DNA from: an uncultured virus (IMG/VR IMGVR_UViG_3300015610_000291)
Taxonomy: Duplodnaviria; Heunggongvirae; Uroviricota; Caudoviricetes
Strand: one strand, 5' to 3'
Length of the DNA stretch: 20,000 bases
IMG/VR virus record: IMGVR_UViG_3300015610_000291
Coordinates: 60,936 to 80,935 of that record
Positions 1,160-17,413 of this stretch are shown one piece after another. A program made the position numbers and the translations under genes. The notes under the pieces were generated by a model, which did no database searches, had not been told where the DNA came from, and saw nothing but the letters and a program-made list of their open reading frames with translations. Within the stretch, counting starts at the first letter, position 1; each line of letters starts with the position of its first letter.

Positions 1160-1411
1160 TTATACTTCTGATGTTAAGACAGTAATTTCAATAGTTTCTG
1201 CTGTTGGTGTCCATGCCCATAAAGGAAAACCAGCAGAAACAGATAGGTCGTTAGTTAAGATTTGACAATAAGGCGTAGTTAAAGGGTTTGGAGAAGCTGT
1301 TGTACAAGTAAAGCGTGTATTAGAACCACGAATCTCTTGGATATAAGCAGCCTTAGTTCCATTTAAGATTTGTGTTGGAGTTTGTGTTAGTGTAAATTTT
1401 TGAGCAGCCAT
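1160..1411 (-). CDS. Small beta-rich hypothetical protein, possibly virion-associated
   Basis: 83-aa ORF with AAGAGA SD-like sequence, 2 nt from the next gene in the same orientation. Confidence 0.75.
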   Translation of the reverse strand: MAAQKFTLTQTPTQILNGTKAAYIQEIRGSNTRFTCTTASPNPLTTPYCQILTNDLSVSAGFPLWAWTPTAETIEITVLTSEV

Positions 1412-1855
1412 TTTTATATCTCTTATTCAATTGTTTTTAGAATCTTGTATTATTGTATGTATTAACGACCACTCTAACCTGTCTTAATACTGAGAACACA
1501 GAAGTTGTTCCCCTCTCCACAACTAAAGCTGACATTGCATCAGCTAAATGTTATTATTTATTGTTGTTTTCTTTCTTATTATAAAACTGATTTATCAAGT
1601 AGGGCGTATGTTAAACTTAGCTGATACTATGTAACCACGAATGCTTACACTAACGGTTCGTTCAATAGTCTTTTAGACTTCCACCTACCTCTGTTTACAC
1701 CTAACAGATTCGTCACAAAGGGTTGTTATATGCAAGGATGACGGTGAACATATACAACTAACATCTTACGATTGATAAAACTGAATCAGTTGGTAGTCTA
1801 TTCCTGCCTGTCAACTATCGTCACCCTCCTCAACTAAACAGAGACTTTGGGAGGC

Positions 1856-1904
1856 TATGAGACCCATAAGGGTTTCTGTGTATCTCAACACTTCATCAGT
1901 CATA
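1856..1904 (-). ncRNA. Type I hammerhead ribozyme
   Basis: Minus strand reads TATGA-CTGATGA-A-GTGT-TGAGAT-ACAC-A-GAAA-CCC-TTAT-GGG-TC^TCATA. It shows the CUGAUGA and GAAA core, stems I, II and III, and a GUC cleavage triplet (cut predicted between 1861 and 1860). Stem I can extend via CAGAGAC (1912-1918) / GTCTCTG (1839-1845). Confidence 0.85.
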
Positions 1905-1996
1905 TTAACTTGTCTCTGCCTGAGCAACTACTTCGATAGTGGTGTTGCTGTAGGACTATTTTGTCTTTCGACAATCTTTAATATACAGGATACCCA

Positions 1997-2224
1997 TCAA
2001 TAGATGGGATTCTTCTGAGGAGTAACACAACCATAAAACATTTGCTGTTCTACAATACCTTCAAACTTTACATCTTTATTATAATCTAAATCTCGTAAAC
2101 TCTTATTCACTTCATCACGACAGACATTACAGAAAGTTTCCTCAATCTTCGACCCATCAGAGAGTGTTCTCATTCCTGTTGTTCTTCGTAGCACTACGTT
2201 ACAGCATACACATCTACCTGACAT
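1997..2224 (-). CDS. Small Cys4 zinc-finger-like protein
   Basis: CVCC...CNVC motifs. SD GAGGTG precedes the ATG at 2224. It is the only conventional CDS within the RNA island. Confidence 0.8.
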   Translation of the reverse strand: MSGRCVCCNVVLRRTTGMRTLSDGSKIEETFCNVCRDEVNKSLRDLDYNKDVKFEGIVEQQMFYGCVTPQKNPIY

Positions 2225-2288
2225 CAAACACCTCTTATTATTATCTTAAATACTTCCCTTTTACCGACACAGATAAGGGTGATCTGCT

Positions 2289-2750
2289 ATGAGGACAATT
2301 CTTTACCTGCCCTGTCTAGATTGTTTTATCTTCGTATAAGATACTTCTGTCAACACAAGGAACGCATTAATCTTCTCTTACACCACGACAATCCTAAGCG
2401 TACTTGTTAAACTTGTTTTAACATCTTAAACATGAAGTAATCTGTAACGACATTGCAAATAGTTACACAGACAGTCTAAATTAACGCGCTTGGGATAATC
2501 ATCAACAACTGAAAGGATGCTCTCGACCAATTACTTCTGTTTAAAATCTCATTAATTAGATTGACTAACTTCACAGATTAGTCTTGAGGGATATGAATAA
2601 TATTCAACATCCAACACCGTTTAATAGCCTACCTATTAGCACCCACCACACAACTCAGTAACGCCAAGTCAATTGTGTGTTTGTTTCACTACATCTTTCA
2701 GGGATGGTTGTATTTACTCGTTACCCTCAACAACCTCATGTGCATGACTT
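2289..2750 (-). ncRNA. Candidate large structured, multi-pseudoknot ncRNA downstream of the tRNAs
   Basis: No credible ORF. Many complementary segment pairs, several crossing: 2724-2730/2584-2590, 2719-2724/2658-2663, 2695-2701/2509-2515, 2530-2544/2426-2441, 2486-2496/2391-2401, 2468-2474/2312-2318. Boundaries are approximate. Confidence 0.55.
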
Positions 2751-2757
2751 TAAAATT

Positions 2758-2845
2758 TGGCAGAGAGCATCTTAATCGAAAAGAATGCACAAAGTACACA
2801 ATCTGTTTAGCAAACAGTTTCCAAGACCTCTTGGATTTACTCTCT
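2758..2845 (-). tRNA. tRNA-Ser(GCT), divergent T arm
   Basis: Acceptor AGAGAGT/GCTCTCT, G73 discriminator, encoded CCA. Anticodon arm CTGT-TT-GCT-AA-ACAG, long variable arm, T loop TTCGATT closed by T-A instead of G-C. Confidence 0.8.
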
Positions 2846-2846
2846 G

Positions 2847-2937
2847 TGGCGGAAGGTGAGAGGGTCGAACTCTCAAGGCTTTTACACTCGACTGTTTTCA
2901 AGACAGCTCCCATCGCCAGCTATTGGGTTGACCTTCC
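2847..2937 (-). tRNA. tRNA-Ser(TGA)
   Basis: GGAAGGT/ACCTTCC acceptor, G73 and CCA. Anticodon arm GCTGT-CT-TGA-AA-ACAGT, long variable arm, T arm GAGAG-TTCGACC-CTCTC. Confidence 0.96.
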
Positions 2938-3250
2938 AGATGACCTCTTGTGAACACGGGAGAGGTCTTAACCGTTTTACACACAAGACAACATGGTCTG
3001 CTGCACGCAACAGATAAGATAGTCTGCTATCTCGTATCTTTCAATCTACATTTCAACCAACAAATCCCGAAGCAATTGCGTCTATCGGAGGAGGTTAGGT
3101 AGTGGAACACCTATTAAGTAACCAAACAGTTTGAGCGTCTATCGAAGTGTCCCGATACAGCACAAGAGCAACCTCTCATTCTAGGCTTGTTTGGTGTTAT
3201 TTAACTACAAATCCCAACCTTCGTTTATGGTTTTAGGATTACATCCTTCT

Positions 3251-3283
3251 TTACCAAATCTCCTACAATCTGATACCTTCTTT
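3251..3283 (-). repeat. Copy 1 of a 33-bp motif (AAAGAA-NN-TATCAGATTGTAGGAGATTTGGTAA), inverted relative to 4257-4289
   Basis: 3251-3275 is the exact reverse complement of 4265-4289. Identity extends to 31 of 33 bp. Confidence 0.95.
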
Positions 3284-3286
3284 CAT
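3263..3286 (-). CDS. Putative 7-aa minigene MKEGIRL
   Basis: GGAG SD at 3294-3297, 7-nt spacer, ATG AAA GAA GGT ATC AGA TTG TAG. Lies 24 nt downstream of the tRNA-like RNA. Confidence 0.35.
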   Translation of the reverse strand: MKEGIRL

Positions 3287-3310
3287 AGAATTTCTCCGAT
3301 TATAGAAATT

Positions 3311-3398
3311 TGGAGTCCTCACAGTGAATCGAACACTTCGGCTACCTTCCCTCTGTTTAATGCCACAAGCTTAGAAGACTCGTGAGGGGAGCAAGGAC
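3311..3398 (-). ncRNA. Atypical tRNA-like RNA with Arg(TCT) anticodon loop, 8/4 acceptor/T fold and no canonical D arm
   Basis: GTCCTTGC/GTGAGGAC 8-bp acceptor plus T-CCA. T arm AGTG-TTCGATT-CACT. Anticodon hairpin CACGAGT-CT-TCT-AA-GCTTGTG. TCCCCT/AGAGGGA helix sits where the D arm would be. Confidence 0.75.
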
Positions 3399-3429
3399 AA
3401 CAATTAGTGTCGGTTACAATTATCCGACT

Positions 3430-3599
3430 CCACTAGCTAACTGTATTCCGAAGGAGATGACAGAATAAAGTCAGATGGATGACATAGGAGACAACTTTAA
3501 ATCTTGGAGTAGGGTTGGTGTCCCTACGGCTTGCAAGAGGAGTAGGAGTTCCTGATCAAGCACCTTCAGCGACAAGAATTAACATGTATTTTCTAGTGG
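3430..3599 (-). ncRNA. Candidate ~170-nt sRNA with multiple anti-Shine-Dalgarno (CUCC/CUCCU) motifs
   Basis: Starts right after the promoter at 3610-3638. Ends pair (CCACTAG 3593-3599 with CTAGTGG 3430-3436). Five CUCC motifs, four of them CUCCU. No credible ORF. Confidence 0.55.
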
Positions 3600-3609
3600 C
3601 TATATAGAC

Positions 3610-3638
3610 ATATTAACCCACGATCTTCAACCTGTCAA
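3610..3638 (-). promoter_or_regulatory. sigma70-type promoter of the RNA island
   Basis: TTGACA-17 bp-TAATAT on the minus strand. Predicted start near 3603. Confidence 0.8.
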
Positions 3639-4096
3639 CCCCTTTTCAGCACATAAACCAACCAAAACACACAAAAATATCAAAATTTATATAAATTCTT
3701 ATGAAATTTACACCAAATCACGTTTAATTCACAACAACTAGCACCAAATGGGTATAAATTTAATAAAATACGTTCTTGTCTAAGAGCAACACCAAACACA
3801 ATTAGTCAAGATAACGCAGTTAAACCTGTTTACACCTCAAACAGAAGTGATTATATAAATTATACATACAAAGACTAAATGAGATACATTCTTAATAAGA
3901 ATACTACTGTATGTGATCTAATCCCTATTAGATATGTAATAAGAATATTAATATATATACTAATTATATATATATAGTTTATTATATTTATATAAATAAA
4001 TCTAATTGTCTAGAATCATACATAGCTCATGTATTCTAGATATATAATATTATTTGTTTTTAATTAATATAGCTAATCCCCTTACCCCTTGATTTA

Positions 4097-4125
4097 AATT
4101 TAACATCGGTGTCAAGTCTTGTCAA
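4097..4125 (-). promoter_or_regulatory. Second leftward sigma70-type promoter
   Basis: TTGACA-17 bp-TAAATT with a TGn extended -10. Confidence 0.5.
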
Positions 4126-4214
4126 GTACCTAAAATCAAAGTTTTTTGTAACAATGACGTAAGTGTAAGAAAAATAAGAAATTAAATATATTTTGGTTTG
4201 TGTGCTAAAACCTA

Positions 4215-4243
4215 TTGACGTAGCTAAATTCTAGTTGTATAAT
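4215..4243 (+). promoter_or_regulatory. sigma70-type promoter of the rightward gene cluster
   Basis: TTGACG-17 bp-TATAAT. Confidence 0.85.
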
Positions 4244-4256
4244 CGAACTTAGAAAC

Positions 4257-4289
4257 AAAGAAATTATCAGATTGTAGGAGATTTGGTAA
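4257..4289 (+). repeat. Copy 2 of the 33-bp motif, forming a leader hairpin with a TGTAGGAG loop
   Basis: AATTATCAGAT-TGTAGGAG-ATTTGGTAATT hairpin about 12 nt after the predicted start. Matches 3251-3283 on the opposite strand. Confidence 0.9.
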
Positions 4290-4327
4290 TTCTAAACAAA
4301 CTAATTTAGCTAAAGAGGAAATATATT

Positions 4328-4678
4328 ATGGCGTTTGTAGTAAATCAAGATGAGACTGTATCGGTAACAGCGTACTCATTGCACGAGTTTGCATTTGACC
4401 TAGCTTATCTAGGAAGTAAAGGTTTTACACCTTCACTTGAGAATAAGTACTGTCCGTGGGGAGGTATCTCAGGTGGTATGTATAACGCAACATTGGTGAA
4501 GTTGACTGATTATTACATTGACTTACAAGGTAATCACATCAACGCTCCGAAAGATGATGTTGAAGTAGCTGTTGAGAGTGTAAAGCAAGTGACAACATCT
4601 AGTGTTGAACAAGATGTAGAAGAAACTCCACCAGTTGTGCAAACAACTCGTACACGAAATAAGAAAACAAATACGTGA
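4328..4678 (+). CDS. Hypothetical protein with a low-complexity C-terminal tail
   Basis: 116-aa ORF, SD AGAGGA, first gene after the promoter. Confidence 0.85.
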   Translation: MAFVVNQDETVSVTAYSLHEFAFDLAYLGSKGFTPSLENKYCPWGGISGGMYNATLVKLTDYYIDLQGNHINAPKDDVEVAVESVKQVTTSSVEQDVEETPPVVQTTRTRNKKTNT

Positions 4679-14535: not shown

Positions 14536-15855
14536 TTACTTAACTAACTCCTCATCATTTGCCTCTAACCATTTAAAATACAAATCCCTCATCTCCTTAC
14601 TAGGCATGATAAGATACATCTTCTCTTTCTTACGGACACTCCCACGAAATATCCATTGAACCATACTACCAATAGCAAAGAGTTCTTTGTCAATAACAAC
14701 ACCTTTAGAATGACAGAAATTCCACAACACTGTGTTAGGGTTCTTACCAATAAGATAGATCAACACACTCTTATTTGAATAGTCATTAGTAGCTCTTGCA
14801 TCTGAGTATAACCAATCAGCACGACTAAAACCTTTCCCTTTAATTAAAGGACGTTTCTTAATCTTACCTTTTTCGGATACATAATCATCGTATTCATTAC
14901 TCAGAACAGAAGACCAATTGGCTTTAGGACACGTTACAAGAATGTTCTCTGTCTTTGCTTTAGTGATGGTAAGACAACTGGTTACAGCTTTCCTAATATT
15001 CTCAACAACACTCTCAACAGCAGAGTTACCCCACCAGAACTGAGAGTATGAGTAGTTCTCAATCTTTCTAAGAGAAGGTGTTACAATTACTTCAATACAG
15101 TCTTTGATATAAGCTTTAACTTCTTCTGTACTTCTATGTAGTTCTGGTTTAACACGAACAACTTCGATGTTATTAATTTTACACCAAGCAGACATGAAGC
15201 TACCTTCAAACAAGTAAGTTAACACCCACACCTCATTAAAAGAAGATAAGATTGATACAGGATACTCCCATACTAACAGTTCCCCATTAACATAGAAGAT
15301 ATGACCAGCATCACTAAGCTTTACTAAATCACCAAACTCCCATTCATCATCTGGATATAAGTCTTTCTCTCTATGATATACAAGTTTCATAGTCTCTTGA
15401 TCTACACTAAACACACCCTGCTCAATAAGTAGTGCTAGAGCTTTCTTACTAATATCTCTGAATTGTTGATAAGCATCTAAGCACTCATCAATTACAAGAA
15501 CATTATCATACTCCTTAATTAAATCAGAACAAGATTTATCTAAGTTAAGAAACAGATTGTGTGTAGCTGCGATGTTCTCTCCTTGATGTAACAACTCAAG
15601 AGAGTGACTACGTTTACTTCCCTTAACAGGTATTGGGTATCTGAAATTCATATCAGGTAATTGCTTCTGAATACGACCACCAAGATACTTGTTTGTCTGA
15701 TTGCACTTAACACCACCAACCTCAGTTAGCAATGGTGATAGATATACAAACTGCTTAAACTTACCAGAGTCATTCCACTCCTTCATCTTGTTCAACATCC
15801 AATGAGATTTACCACTTGACATGATCTCATCAACCAAATATATTTTCAATTGCAC
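14536..15855 (-). CDS. SF2 (DExx) helicase-like / possible origin-binding protein
   Basis: Walker A-like VDEIMSSGKS, YLSPLLTE (motif Ia), ATHNLF, VIDE (motif II), VLTYLF, QWIFRGSVR (motif VI-like). True start may be TTG at 15849 after AGGAGG. Confidence 0.75.
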   Translation of the reverse strand: MQLKIYLVDEIMSSGKSHWMLNKMKEWNDSGKFKQFVYLSPLLTEVGGVKCNQTNKYLGGRIQKQLPDMNFRYPIPVKGSKRSHSLELLHQGENIAATHNLFLNLDKSCSDLIKEYDNVLVIDECLDAYQQFRDISKKALALLIEQGVFSVDQETMKLVYHREKDLYPDDEWEFGDLVKLSDAGHIFYVNGELLVWEYPVSILSSFNEVWVLTYLFEGSFMSAWCKINNIEVVRVKPELHRSTEEVKAYIKDCIEVIVTPSLRKIENYSYSQFWWGNSAVESVVENIRKAVTSCLTITKAKTENILVTCPKANWSSVLSNEYDDYVSEKGKIKKRPLIKGKGFSRADWLYSDARATNDYSNKSVLIYLIGKNPNTVLWNFCHSKGVVIDKELFAIGSMVQWIFRGSVRKKEKMYLIMPSKEMRDLYFKWLEANDEELVK

Positions 15856-16017
15856 CTCCTTGAGAGTATAAATTAAGGTTAAAACACAATCTTGTCAATT
15901 TGAAAAAAAAACTTCCAAGAATTGTTAAAAAAGTGTTGTAACCTATTGAATATAATAGAGAAAAATAAAGGGTTCTTATATACCACTATAATTTAGATAT
16001 ATTTACCCCTAAAGATA

Positions 16018-16046
16018 AGTATAACACTAGAAATTAGATAAAACAA
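16018..16046 (-). promoter_or_regulatory. Putative promoter for the helicase-like gene
   Basis: TTGTTT-17 bp-TATACT with TGn. A second candidate TTGACA-17 bp-TAATTT lies at 15870-15898. Confidence 0.5.
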
Positions 16047-16061
16047 GAGAGATAAGAAAGG

Positions 16062-16576
16062 AAATATCTACTTTTAAGAAAAACACATAAGAATAAATTA
16101 AGATATTGGTGTTTTTATAAAAATCACACCTATATAAAATTTGATAATAGGTATAAATAAGAAAATAAATAATTGTTATAATAAAAATATCTATGTGTAT
16201 ATAATGATATAGATAATACTAATAAAGAAATATCTTAATATGTATGTAACTAAAAATATAATAAATCAATATAATACCTCTCTGTAAGAACACCTAAGCT
16301 CTACAAGAAATATCAATAAAATTCTATCAAAAATATCTACTATATCTATTGTTCTTTCATTGTTATTTTATTGTTATCAATCTATTGTTAAACCCCTATG
16401 GTTGTAAGGTTTCTTAAGAAATTACTAGAATCTCTAAAGTCTAGCTATTTTCTCTTACTTTTACTACTTATAGAAATATCCACTAGGGTACTTCCTAAAT
16501 TCTTAGACTATCTAAAGTGTTGCTTAACAACCCCCAGCACCCCATAAATCTAATCACTTATGATTCCAAAATATCT
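16062..16576 (+). repeat. Seven co-oriented AAATATC motifs in a long AT-rich non-coding region
   Basis: Copies near 16062, 16185, 16228, 16308, 16331, 16474 and 16569. Three extend to AAATATCYACT. Confidence 0.55.
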
Positions 16577-17299
16577 GATAATAAATATTCTAGTCTACTA
16601 GATGAGTAGTCCCTAAGATGTATGTTTCTTAAAGACTACTGTATGTGGTGATACTAATCGTTTAATCCTAAGACTACAACATGTCTACGTACTTCACTTA
16701 AAGCATCGTCATACCCATCTTGATAGTTCCTATCTAATTCTCTCTTAAGTCTAAACATAAGATCATCTATGTAACCTACACTTAGTGTTGTGTCTTGTAG
16801 AAGTGTTCTTTCTAGCTCATCTAAAATGTTCATCTTAACTACTCCTTATATAGTGTTCTTAACTCTTTAAGTATACCAACTATTTCCAGTGTTGTGTCAA
16901 TTAAATACATTCTTTTTATTCATACATAGTGCATCTATTCATAACTAACATATTTACTTGTTGATAGCGTTACATAATCAAGTTGTGTTCATCTAGTAGT
17001 TTACTATAGATACTAGTAACTAAAAGATATCTAAAGATGGATACTTGTTGAATAGTTTACAATTGTTTACTTTATAAGGGTTGAAGGGTCTGAGGTTATG
17101 TTGTTAAGCATTTAATAGCTAATGATATAACTAACAATATAGATAATACCTGCTTATATAGTTATTAATAGGTTATTAAGAGTAATACATATTATTAAGT
17201 TATCTATACTCTATGTACTTACTTGTAGATAATACATAGTTTATACATAGAGTATTGTATCCTTATAATAAGCTTTATATGTGTTATAGGTAATAATAA

Positions 17300-17317
17300 A
17301 GCCCTCAATTGAGGGCT
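17300..17317 (-). terminator. Terminator of the leftward small-gene cluster
   Basis: AGCCCTC-AATT-GAGGGCT perfect hairpin followed on the minus strand by TTATTATT. Confidence 0.75.
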
Positions 17318-17335
17318 ATTGTATTTTAATTAATC

Positions 17336-17413
17336 TTATACCAATTCATCTAAACTATTTGTCAATGATTCAAACAATAGGCTGTGTGCTTGCTGTAGTT
17401 GTTTAATGTTCAT
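17336..17413 (-). CDS. Micro-protein, 25 aa (MNIKQLQQAHSLLFESLTNSLDELV)
   Basis: SD GAGGT, overlaps the upstream gene's end, stops just before the terminator. Confidence 0.5.
   Translation of the reverse strand: MNIKQLQQAHSLLFESLTNSLDELV

Follow-up and report, generated by a model that had tools for sequence, protein, structure and literature searches.

GOLLD and ROOL are large RNAs of 400–800 nucleotides (nt) that lie near transfer RNAs (tRNAs) in phages. In staphylococci, RsaE and RNAIII carry a C/U-rich loop that seeds pairing with Shine-Dalgarno (SD) regions, and in phage T4 the RegB endoribonuclease silences early messages through GGAG ribosome sites. T4 also makes the species I and species II RNAs, whose function is, to our knowledge, still unknown. 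The T4 tRNA region is transcribed from a middle promoter into a primary transcript of ~1.75–2 kb, the precursor of eight tRNAs and of the species I and II RNAs, which also carries the messenger RNA (mRNA) of the homing endonuclease gene segB (PMC2330249). Hammerhead ribozymes flank prophage genes and were suggested to cut long phage transcripts into gene-length pieces; their stem II can be as short as two pairs and pseudoknot contacts are frequent (Perreault et al. 2011, PMC3088659). Here, we describe an RNA island of about 2.2 kb in an uncultured wastewater virus of the Caudoviricetes (IMG/VR record IMGVR_UViG_3300015610_000291). The analysed window of 20,000 nt is the last 20 kb of this 80,935-bp record, and the island occupies its minus strand from about 3640 to 1412. 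The best reading is that the island is a processed stable-RNA operon at the head of the late gene block, to which we assign a probability of about 0.6.

The layout of the island, known here from its sequence, is similar to that of the T4 tRNA region (PMC2330249): one promoter precedes a tRNA and non-tRNA RNAs, and an open reading frame (ORF) lies within the unit. As with segB in T4, an HNH gene is found inside the cluster of one relative. The island differs from T4 in that tRNAs are the minority, a single canonical one beside at least four non-tRNA modules whose helices were tested, and in that a ribozyme of the self-cleaving type belongs to the unit. Neither by sequence nor through Rfam was a relation to any T4 RNA found, in a comparison that did not extend to the species I and II sequences.

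Like GOLLD and ROOL, the island is phage-borne non-coding RNA adjoining tRNA genes. Unlike them, it consists of separately conserved, independently shuffling pieces (~125–205 nt in the four tested modules), and it matched no covariance model of that kind. No Rfam family reached its gathering threshold in the window. Relaxing the cut-off to E≤10 over positions 1300–4400 added no more than a chance hit to a small nucleolar RNA and the tRNA itself, which scored 34.8 bits with the tRNA-Sec model. At E≤5, no family was reported for any module in ten related loci, and the gap that holds the homologous sequence in the cultured Acinetobacter phage vB_AQ1 returned only a weak hammerhead. Rfam also reported none of the tRNAs that ARAGORN called in the relatives, and weak tRNA-like elements could escape these scans. 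A first-pass annotation of this DNA had proposed such a covariance search and had brought up GOLLD and ROOL; beyond the tRNA and weak hammerhead hits no known family was matched, and no relation to those two RNAs emerged. Full-text searches, which leave out subscription journals, returned no published description of the island.

Four modules were compared helix by helix:

3402–3606, minus strand: 5' structured RNA with hairpins SL1–SL5, helix table over eight homologues
2422–2547, minus strand: M7, a 126-nt RNA with a closing stem of 18–19 bp, nine copies from eight contigs
1825–1949, minus strand: type I hammerhead module, homologues in vB_AQ1 and L041
1590–1778, minus strand: M10a, a multi-hairpin RNA of ~190 nt with conserved loops UUCACCGUCAUCCUU, GGUGUAA and CAUUCGUGG

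Here and below, L-numbers denote related loci or contigs; L093 is the L009 contig, and L089 stands for the L052/L055 contigs. Because MAFFT, applied to the whole island and to the hammerhead flanks, misaligned the covarying helices, each sequence was checked for its helices by script. The z-scores of single-sequence folds were unimpressive for four modules (X, −1.9; hammerhead module, −1.4; 5' RNA, −1.6; M10a, +0.7). The case for structure is thus built on comparison and not on folding energy, and by this comparison the modules are very likely genuine minus-strand RNA structures.

Within the closing stem of M7, which has one bulge, lie a small junction and a hairpin that is invariant and carries the loop UAUUUGCAAUGUC. 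Across the nine copies, aligned over 133 columns without L055 (all of whose rows equal L052), 94.3% of 315 cells were standard pairs and 15 of the 35 pairs had changed on both sides. At least four sequence versions of the stem were seen. In 500 column shuffles the observed value was never reached on any of the five measures, and when the partners were slid by 1–3 columns pairing fell to 33–47%. The pairs included 42 G-U cells, and none of the 18 unpaired cells was A-C. M7 thus pairs on the minus-strand RNA and would fail to do so on the other strand, which argues against a palindrome at the DNA level.

The inverted repeats might instead act as DNA, for example as an origin, a packaging site or protein-binding palindromes. 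The position of the island, bordering an AT-rich divergent promoter region (3650–4200) in which short repeats are frequent, would suit such a role, and cruciforms could form from stems as long, perfect and AT-rich as the one that closes M7. The excess of G-U over A-C in M7 points to pairing on one strand, however, and G-U pairs in SL4 and M10a point the same way. A canonical ribozyme core and a tRNA share one orientation, and G+C is raised, not lowered, over the modules. A DNA-level role is therefore highly improbable. The first-pass annotation had placed structured modules on the minus strand behind one promoter, and the tested helices and the G-U asymmetry bear out the modules and their strand.

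Loop-loop dimers of M7 are conceivable, since UUGCAA, a self-complementary sequence, lies in its invariant loop (2468–2456).

The hammerhead module is made of the following elements:

1949–1944/1928–1923, minus strand: Pu, upstream hairpin, three sequence versions
1917–1912/1845–1840, minus strand: Ib, 6–8 bp, three versions
1904–1900/1860–1856, minus strand: stem I, 5–6 bp, largely the same sequence in all three homologues
1891–1888/1881–1878, minus strand: stem II, 3–4 bp, three versions, a fourth in the unrelated L039 group
1873–1870/1865–1862, minus strand: stem III, 4 bp, three versions
1854–1850/1829–1825, minus strand: Pd, just past the cut site, three versions, its loop giving the 3' strand of Ib and so a pseudoknot
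1899–1893, 1876–1874 and 1861, minus strand: core CUGAUGA, GAA and C17, with the predicted cut at 1861/1860

A module of ~150 nt is common to the window, vB_AQ1 and L041, the last being one sequence on three contigs (L041, L060 and L065). All six helices were fully paired in each of the three sequences. The core CUGAUGA...GAAA...UC, as expected of a hammerhead, was invariant in all three, including the A-U pair closing stem III and the C at 1861. Stems II and III were capped and stem I was open in every case, and Ib, the extension of stem I past an internal loop, covaried in 3/3. Loop II reads UGAGAU in the window, as it does in the L039 group, which is unrelated, and no particular loop contact could be identified. 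A descriptor of the hammerhead architecture gave a single hit on both strands of the genome, and any hit at all in only 1 of 200 dinucleotide shuffles. The ribozyme predicted by the first-pass annotation, with its cut at 1860/1861, is thus borne out as a motif with a predicted cleavage site and helices kept in three sequences, and it likely cleaves.

The features described by Perreault et al. (2011, PMC3088659) place this ribozyme with the hammerheads of prophages. As in that account, a canonical core and a three-helix junction lie in an intergenic position of a long, here predicted, phage transcript, with peripheral pairing that might bring stems I and II into contact. The differences from the hammerheads described there are that ours is a type I with an extended stem I (Ib) whose strand is supplied by the loop of a downstream hairpin, has A opposite A at 10.1/11.1, is present once in the genome and not as a gene-flanking pair, and scores far below the Rfam thresholds.

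Three pattern scans for further hammerheads were carried out. The first returned nine loci: one homologue (L041), three copies of another hammerhead-like site (L039, L040, L044) and five in which no stems were seen by eye. The metagenome scan returned seven loci, two of which repeat L041, one of which is a different small hammerhead (L062), and four of which (the metagenome contigs L061, L063, L064 and L066) are a spacer of a clustered regularly interspaced short palindromic repeat (CRISPR) array that fits the pattern by chance and is no ribozyme. The genome scan gave one locus, in a metagenome-assembled genome of Bacteroidota (L067). The sites L067:1501–1539 and L062:285–327 are small and type I hammerhead-like, lie in unrelated contexts, and have the A at 10.1/11.1 fixed by the pattern. 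In vB_AQ1 (L003:3654–5125), 1.47 kb overlying the hammerhead module are annotated as 'hypothetical proteins' of 30–40 codons; this stretch is probably another non-coding RNA region.

The 5' RNA contains these elements:

3561–3529, minus strand: SL2, apical loop CUCCUA
3527–3509, minus strand: SL3
3492–3483, minus strand: linker motif UCUCCUA
3467–3444, minus strand: SL4, apical loop UCAUCUCCUU
3428–3409, minus strand: SL5, loop AUAAUUGUAA

Eight homologues (L099, L112, L104 and L105, which repeat L091, L089 and L046, were omitted) share one plan: a 5' hairpin, SL2, SL3, a single-stranded (A)UCUCCUA, SL4, GCUAG and SL5. SL2 consists of an outer stem, an internal loop AUC/CUUG and an inner stem. 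Pairing was kept through four versions of the outer and four of the inner stem of SL2, six of SL3, five of SL4 (7–12 bp) and three of SL5, by hand count. The loops stayed nearly constant around these changing stems. AUCUCCUU was invariant within the apical loop of SL4 in 8/8, and the SL5 loop read AUAAUYNUAA across the homologues. The apical loop of SL2 held UCUCCU(A) in 7/8; for the exception, L093, the script's row for SL2 is the linker motif, which there lies in a hairpin loop of its own. A pyrimidine seed complementary to ribosome-binding sites was thus single-stranded in SL4 of all eight homologues and in SL2 of seven.

AUCUCCUU is the exact complement of AAGGAGAU. In a rough call of 146 genes, AGGAGA occurred within 22 nt before the start in 48 genes and AGGAGAT in 18. 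AGGAGA was commoner on the plus (early) strand, at 32/73 genes, than on the minus strand, at 16/73. A further possible partner is an inverted repeat (I1) whose two copies are 94% complementary:

3251–3283, minus strand: 33-nt element holding GUAGGAGAU, copy of 4257–4289
4257–4289, plus strand: second copy, in the leader of the divergent early operon

The plus-strand copy lies downstream of a promoter at 4215–4243 and precedes, by ~40 nt, the true ribosome site of the gene whose start is at 4328. Its core GUAGGAGAU, at 4270–4283 and again at 3270–3256, is complementary over 7 nt to each of the three CU motifs, in shifted registers. (G/U)UAGGAG is also found upstream of the island on the opposite strand in L009, L046 and L052, at places unmapped relative to the first early gene there; the internal copy of the element is found in the window and in none of these three.

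Like RsaE and RNAIII, the 5' RNA has repeated pyrimidine motifs complementary to ribosome-binding sites, unpaired in apical loops. Unlike them, it is phage-encoded and lies at the 5' end of a putative multi-RNA transcript; it is not a terminated small RNA. The first-pass annotation had called it an anti-SD small RNA. An RNA displaying conserved, CU-rich, anti-SD-like loops is indeed present, while the effect on translation is argued from complementarity, and we regard an anti-SD function as a minority possibility. If it is true, the outcome would be the same as with RegB of T4; RegB is a protein that cuts RNA and the 5' RNA would mask or compete, so the two would be analogous and not homologous.

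M10a was compared in three sequences, from the window and the L048 and L050 contigs, in which 17 of 42 predicted pairs had changed on both sides and the stems were wholly different around the conserved loops. Since its homologue stands upstream of M7 in L050, M10a moves as a unit. It is followed by two elements that lead to the first late gene:

1527–1545, minus strand: terminator-like hairpin, possible 3' end of the island transcript
1469–1588, minus strand: conserved leader of the 83-aa gene, with GGAGAGGGGA at 1518–1507

Relatives have different hairpins at the place of 1545–1527, just ahead of the conserved GGAGAGGGGA, and this hairpin may act as a terminator. Nine letters, UGCAAUGUC, are shared by this hairpin and the M7 loop region. 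The leader is 76–79% identical in L046, L050 and L054, and L052/L055 match a longer stretch (1591–1166) at 70.8%. It may be a late promoter or an element of the 5' untranslated region.

The middle of the island holds the tRNA and further modules:

2847–2937, minus strand: tRNA-Ser(UGA) with encoded CCA, called by ARAGORN at default settings, 94.6% identical to tRNA-Ser of Acinetobacter phages
2758–2845, minus strand: tRNA-Ser(GCU)-like cloverleaf, called by ARAGORN only at 80% thresholds
3121–3195, minus strand: module X, closed by an 8-bp stem, at the place of tRNA-Arg(UCU) in L009 and L046
2938–3117, minus strand: module Y, first hairpin 3113–3096, last hairpin 2967–2942
2621–2757, minus strand: module M6, 91% identical in L054

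The tRNA-Ser(UGA) gene is the single default-setting ARAGORN gene of the whole 80.9-kb genome. The cloverleaf directly after it is class II-like, with a long variable arm. Its acceptor stem of 7 bp is followed by GCCA, its anticodon loop presents GCU and its T-loop reads UUCGAUU, but its D arm is abnormal, a 6-bp hairpin with a 4-nt loop. Its minimum-energy fold is the cloverleaf (z = −3.7), and none of 200 shuffles was as stable. A poor 'tRNA-Asp' call at 3191–3115 likewise appeared only at 80% thresholds. The plural tRNAs of the first-pass annotation thus come down to one tRNA at default thresholds and two calls below them.

Module X is 76.7% identical in L052/L055. Its inner hairpin changes from GAGAG/CUCUU to AUGGA/UCCAU, a compensatory change. 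Module Y has partial homologues in L009, L046, L050 and L054, compared at its end hairpins, both of which show compensatory changes. Hairpin 3113–3096 follows X in the window and follows directly after the CCA of tRNA-Arg in L009 and L046; hairpin 2967–2942 covaries with L050. The terminal hairpin of M6 (2638–2622) covaries with L009 and L046, and its putative H-type pseudoknot shows no sequence variation among relatives. The first-pass annotation had read a large pseudoknotted RNA here. Relatives instead show independently conserved pieces, with helices examined in four, and the sole comparatively supported pseudoknot of the island is the one inside the hammerhead module.

One tRNA beside two sub-threshold tRNA-like calls, other tRNAs at the same sites in relatives, and the active turnover implied by a homing endonuclease gene in L046 could all be expected of a decaying tRNA cluster in which recombination scars have left mostly functionless remnants. 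Decay, however, would not keep helices through compensatory changes, nor keep loops invariant across wholly different stems, and the supported modules are unlike tRNAs. We consider this explanation very unlikely.

A phage collection contained no close relative of the island; its matches were the tRNA and one 150-nt match in vB_AQ1. In IMG/VR, syntenic islands were found in ~10 contigs of wastewater phages, several of them 79–89 kb long. A synteny search with the 306-aa late protein gave 33 loci, among which the island was present in L009 alone; L004, whose late protein is 89% identical, has ordinary genes in its place. Pattern scans were noisy: one gave 4 loci, 2 of them by chance (L056, L057), another gave 8 loci, 6 by chance, and another gave 44 loci, with 10 homologues of the island on 8 contigs. 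When the island was compared with its relatives by BLAST, a patchwork emerged, with shared segments at 70–97% identity and others missing. Modules were present, absent, moved, duplicated or interrupted. The homologue of 1752–1583 (M10a) lies upstream of M7 in L050, which changes the order; tRNA-Arg(UCU) stands in place of tRNA-Ser in L009, L046, L049 and L050; and two tandem units occupy the M7 position in L046. Inserts occur at fixed junctions, such as a tRNA-Arg(UCU) after SL3 in L050, and L091 has a 36-nt insert ahead of SL3. By sequence comparison, the island is a set of cassettes and not a single conserved block, and its modules are seen to behave as separate evolutionary units. The segments between tRNAs, for which the first-pass annotation had proposed a check of conservation and covariation in related phages, yielded both conserved pieces and compensatory changes.

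Three further elements were observed in these relatives. In L046, an HNH homing endonuclease gene (NUMOD4 and HNH_3; L046:2544–3095) lies between two copies of the SL4–SL5 unit of the 5' RNA. After SL3 of L052 there is a tRNA-like insert of ~116 nt (L089:1189–1556) with two T-arm-like hairpins and a CACCA end; only with thresholds lowered to 70% did ARAGORN report it, either as tRNA-Asp(AUC) or within a permuted transfer-messenger RNA. A group I intron lies at L009:9242–9506, downstream of the late genes and outside the island; it scores 65.4 bits with Rfam Intron_gpI, whose gathering threshold is 50.

The mosaic bears on the main rival, in which the whole 2.2 kb would be a cis-acting leader of the late operon, controlling read-through, stability or translation, with the hammerhead trimming it. 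The late block follows the island immediately on the same strand, with no strong terminator between the two, and the piece kept in the largest number of relatives, 1588–1469, adjoins the first late gene. Against such a leader, the order of the modules varies, both among themselves and with respect to the late genes (in L050, M10a comes before M7), and L004 does without it despite a late gene 89% identical. A tRNA gene and an ORF lie inside the stretch, and the hammerhead module of vB_AQ1 has a different gene context. A cis-acting leader is therefore unlikely, and the processed stable-RNA operon remains the preferred reading.

The coding content of the island is small. Between 3640 and 1412 on the minus strand (~2.2 kb; the ATG of the 83-aa gene is at 1411), there is one credible coding sequence, and the remaining ORFs of 25–92 codons, on both strands, have neither conservation nor ribosome sites. 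Two features define the island's transcription and coding:

3610–3638, minus strand: sigma-70-type promoter TTGACA-17-TAATAT, 10/12 matches, −35 hexamer conserved
1997–2224, minus strand: coding sequence of a 75-aa CxxC...CxxC zinc-ribbon protein, family unassigned, ribosome site AAGAGG

The zinc-ribbon protein was found in seven related contigs at 72–83% identity; no Pfam family scored above its cut-off, and the nearest Atlas clusters are viral hypothetical proteins. The single conventional coding sequence in ~2.1 kb that the first-pass annotation had noted thus holds. Could several small proteins have been missed by the ORF lists? Short ORFs of 25–92 codons do exist on both strands. None of them combines a ribosome site with conservation, though, and homologous modules differ by indels of lengths not divisible by three and by substitutions paired across stems. 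The 'hypothetical proteins' of 30–40 codons in vB_AQ1 overlie the hammerhead module. Missed proteins are the least probable of the alternatives.

The G+C content was 0.41–0.45 in 400-nt windows across 2601–3600, and 0.389 over 1412–3605 against 0.344 for the genome. In an AT-rich genome, structured RNA commonly shows such a rise.

Promoter-like sites as a class were not enriched between 1000 and 4600 (12 found against 12.8 expected). The promoter at 3638–3610, also proposed by the first-pass annotation, is credible because its position is conserved among relatives: all six sequences covering that stretch (the window, L046, L089, L092, L094 and L009) have TTGACA equally far from the first hairpin. 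Upstream of the zinc-ribbon gene, TTGACA is followed after 17 nt by GATAAA (2353–2320), a site absent from the promoter-scan list, which might be an internal promoter.

Downstream of the island, on the minus strand, lie the 83-aa gene and a 306-aa gene, followed by the terminase large subunit, the portal, the major head protein, a minor tail protein and a 1927-aa tape measure. On the plus strand, genes for PhoH-like, ClpP-like and other proteins diverge from the AT-rich stretch 3650–4200 (G+C 0.23–0.29). From this gene content, the island lies between the early and the late structural blocks, at the head of the late block. IMG/VR classes the record as complete, with direct terminal repeats; its first and last 100 letters differ. 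Two other ORF-poor and very AT-rich gaps of the window, 15850–16397 (G+C 0.215) and 16834–17402 (0.267), have a few short repeats and look like regulatory regions, not structured RNA.

Herein, we describe the process by which the island would give rise to its RNAs. The promoter at 3638–3610 would transcribe the minus strand into one precursor of ~2.1 kb, carrying in order the 5' RNA, X, Y, tRNA-Ser(UGA), the doubtful tRNA-Ser-like RNA, M6, M7, the zinc-ribbon mRNA, the hammerhead and M10a. The tRNA would be processed by RNase P and 3' nucleases, and the long closing stems would be cut by RNase III or another nuclease specific for double strands. The hammerhead would cut at 1861/1860, leaving a 5'-hydroxyl end on the downstream RNA. 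The CU loops of the released 5' RNA would pair with ribosome-binding sites of the AAGGAGA(U) type or with the GUAGGAGAU element of the early leader and so alter translation. M6, M7, M10a, X and Y may be trans-acting, we guess, with proteins or RNAs as their partners. Whether a single precursor is processed in this way is, in our judgement, an even bet. The bolder proposal, that the 5' RNA, with three exposed (A)UCUCCU(U/A) motifs fitting the phage's own AAGGAGA(U) sites and the early-leader element, is a phage-made competitor for ribosome-binding sites and that M7, M10a, X, Y and M6 are new classes of trans-acting RNA exchanged like cassettes, is doubtful.

Public sequencing runs give a weak hint of expression. 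Parts of the stretch were found in 20 runs, one of them a DNA run at 97% of sampled words that may be its source. Contigs of 59–380 nt from three RNA libraries of three studies matched pieces of the island at 88–99% (1554–1786, 1978–2087, 2432–2538, 2613–2756, 2799–2937, 3114–3198 and 3308–3700), and one 126-nt contig is essentially the M7 of a relative. Module sequences of relatives are thus present in RNA libraries. The RNA-library runs X15, X16 and X19 have no cover over 1785–1938, which includes the hammerhead, and are uninformative on it either way; X5 covers this part and is probably DNA.

Several points weigh against a processed stable-RNA operon. These runs are stored as contigs that carry neither strand, ends nor level, and DNA carry-over into the libraries is possible. 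Two more promoter-like sites within the island, at 3328–3299 and 3044–3016, make several transcripts possible, and no good intrinsic terminator closes the unit, the hairpin at 1545–1527 having a weak U tract. Only three homologous hammerhead sequences were found, and M10a was likewise compared in three. At 10.1/11.1, the window, vB_AQ1 and L041 have A opposite A where the Rfam consensus has G and C; the search patterns fixed these letters, so that other hits are not independent on the A-A. The Rfam scores of the ribozyme are 15.7 bits for Hammerhead_3 in the window against a gathering threshold of 48.5, and 17.8 for HH9 in vB_AQ1 against 52. The Hammerhead_3 hit came from a scan of 161 nt; the 3.1-kb scan of 1300–4400 gave no hammerhead. 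A pattern scan returned no homologue of the tRNA-Ser(GCU)-like RNA, and one RNA-library contig diverges inside it. As Rfam gave no family for these modules, no function can be borrowed from a known RNA. The anti-SD idea, finally, amounts to a complementarity of 7–8 nt to a motif abundant in any SD-using genome.

At least four non-tRNA modules with support from compensatory changes, and with no Rfam family, occur across several ~80-kb contigs of wastewater phages, which makes the island richer than the stable-RNA cluster of T4 with its species I and II. Annotation pipelines fill such stretches with short 'hypothetical proteins', as the example of vB_AQ1 illustrates. Because this hammerhead variant is shared with that cultured Acinetobacter phage, the ribozyme can be tested in a laboratory system, and the 5' RNA offers a concrete, testable idea for RNA-based control of translation by phages. 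If that idea is true, and if the match of the CU loops beats the ribosome's own, then early messages would be masked upon transcription of the island and translation would turn to the late block. If the proposed processing is true, the hairpin closures and the ribozyme would be built-in excision signals. The shuffling of cassettes, with tRNAs and a homing endonuclease entering at fixed junctions, suggests a route by which RNA islands of this kind may evolve.

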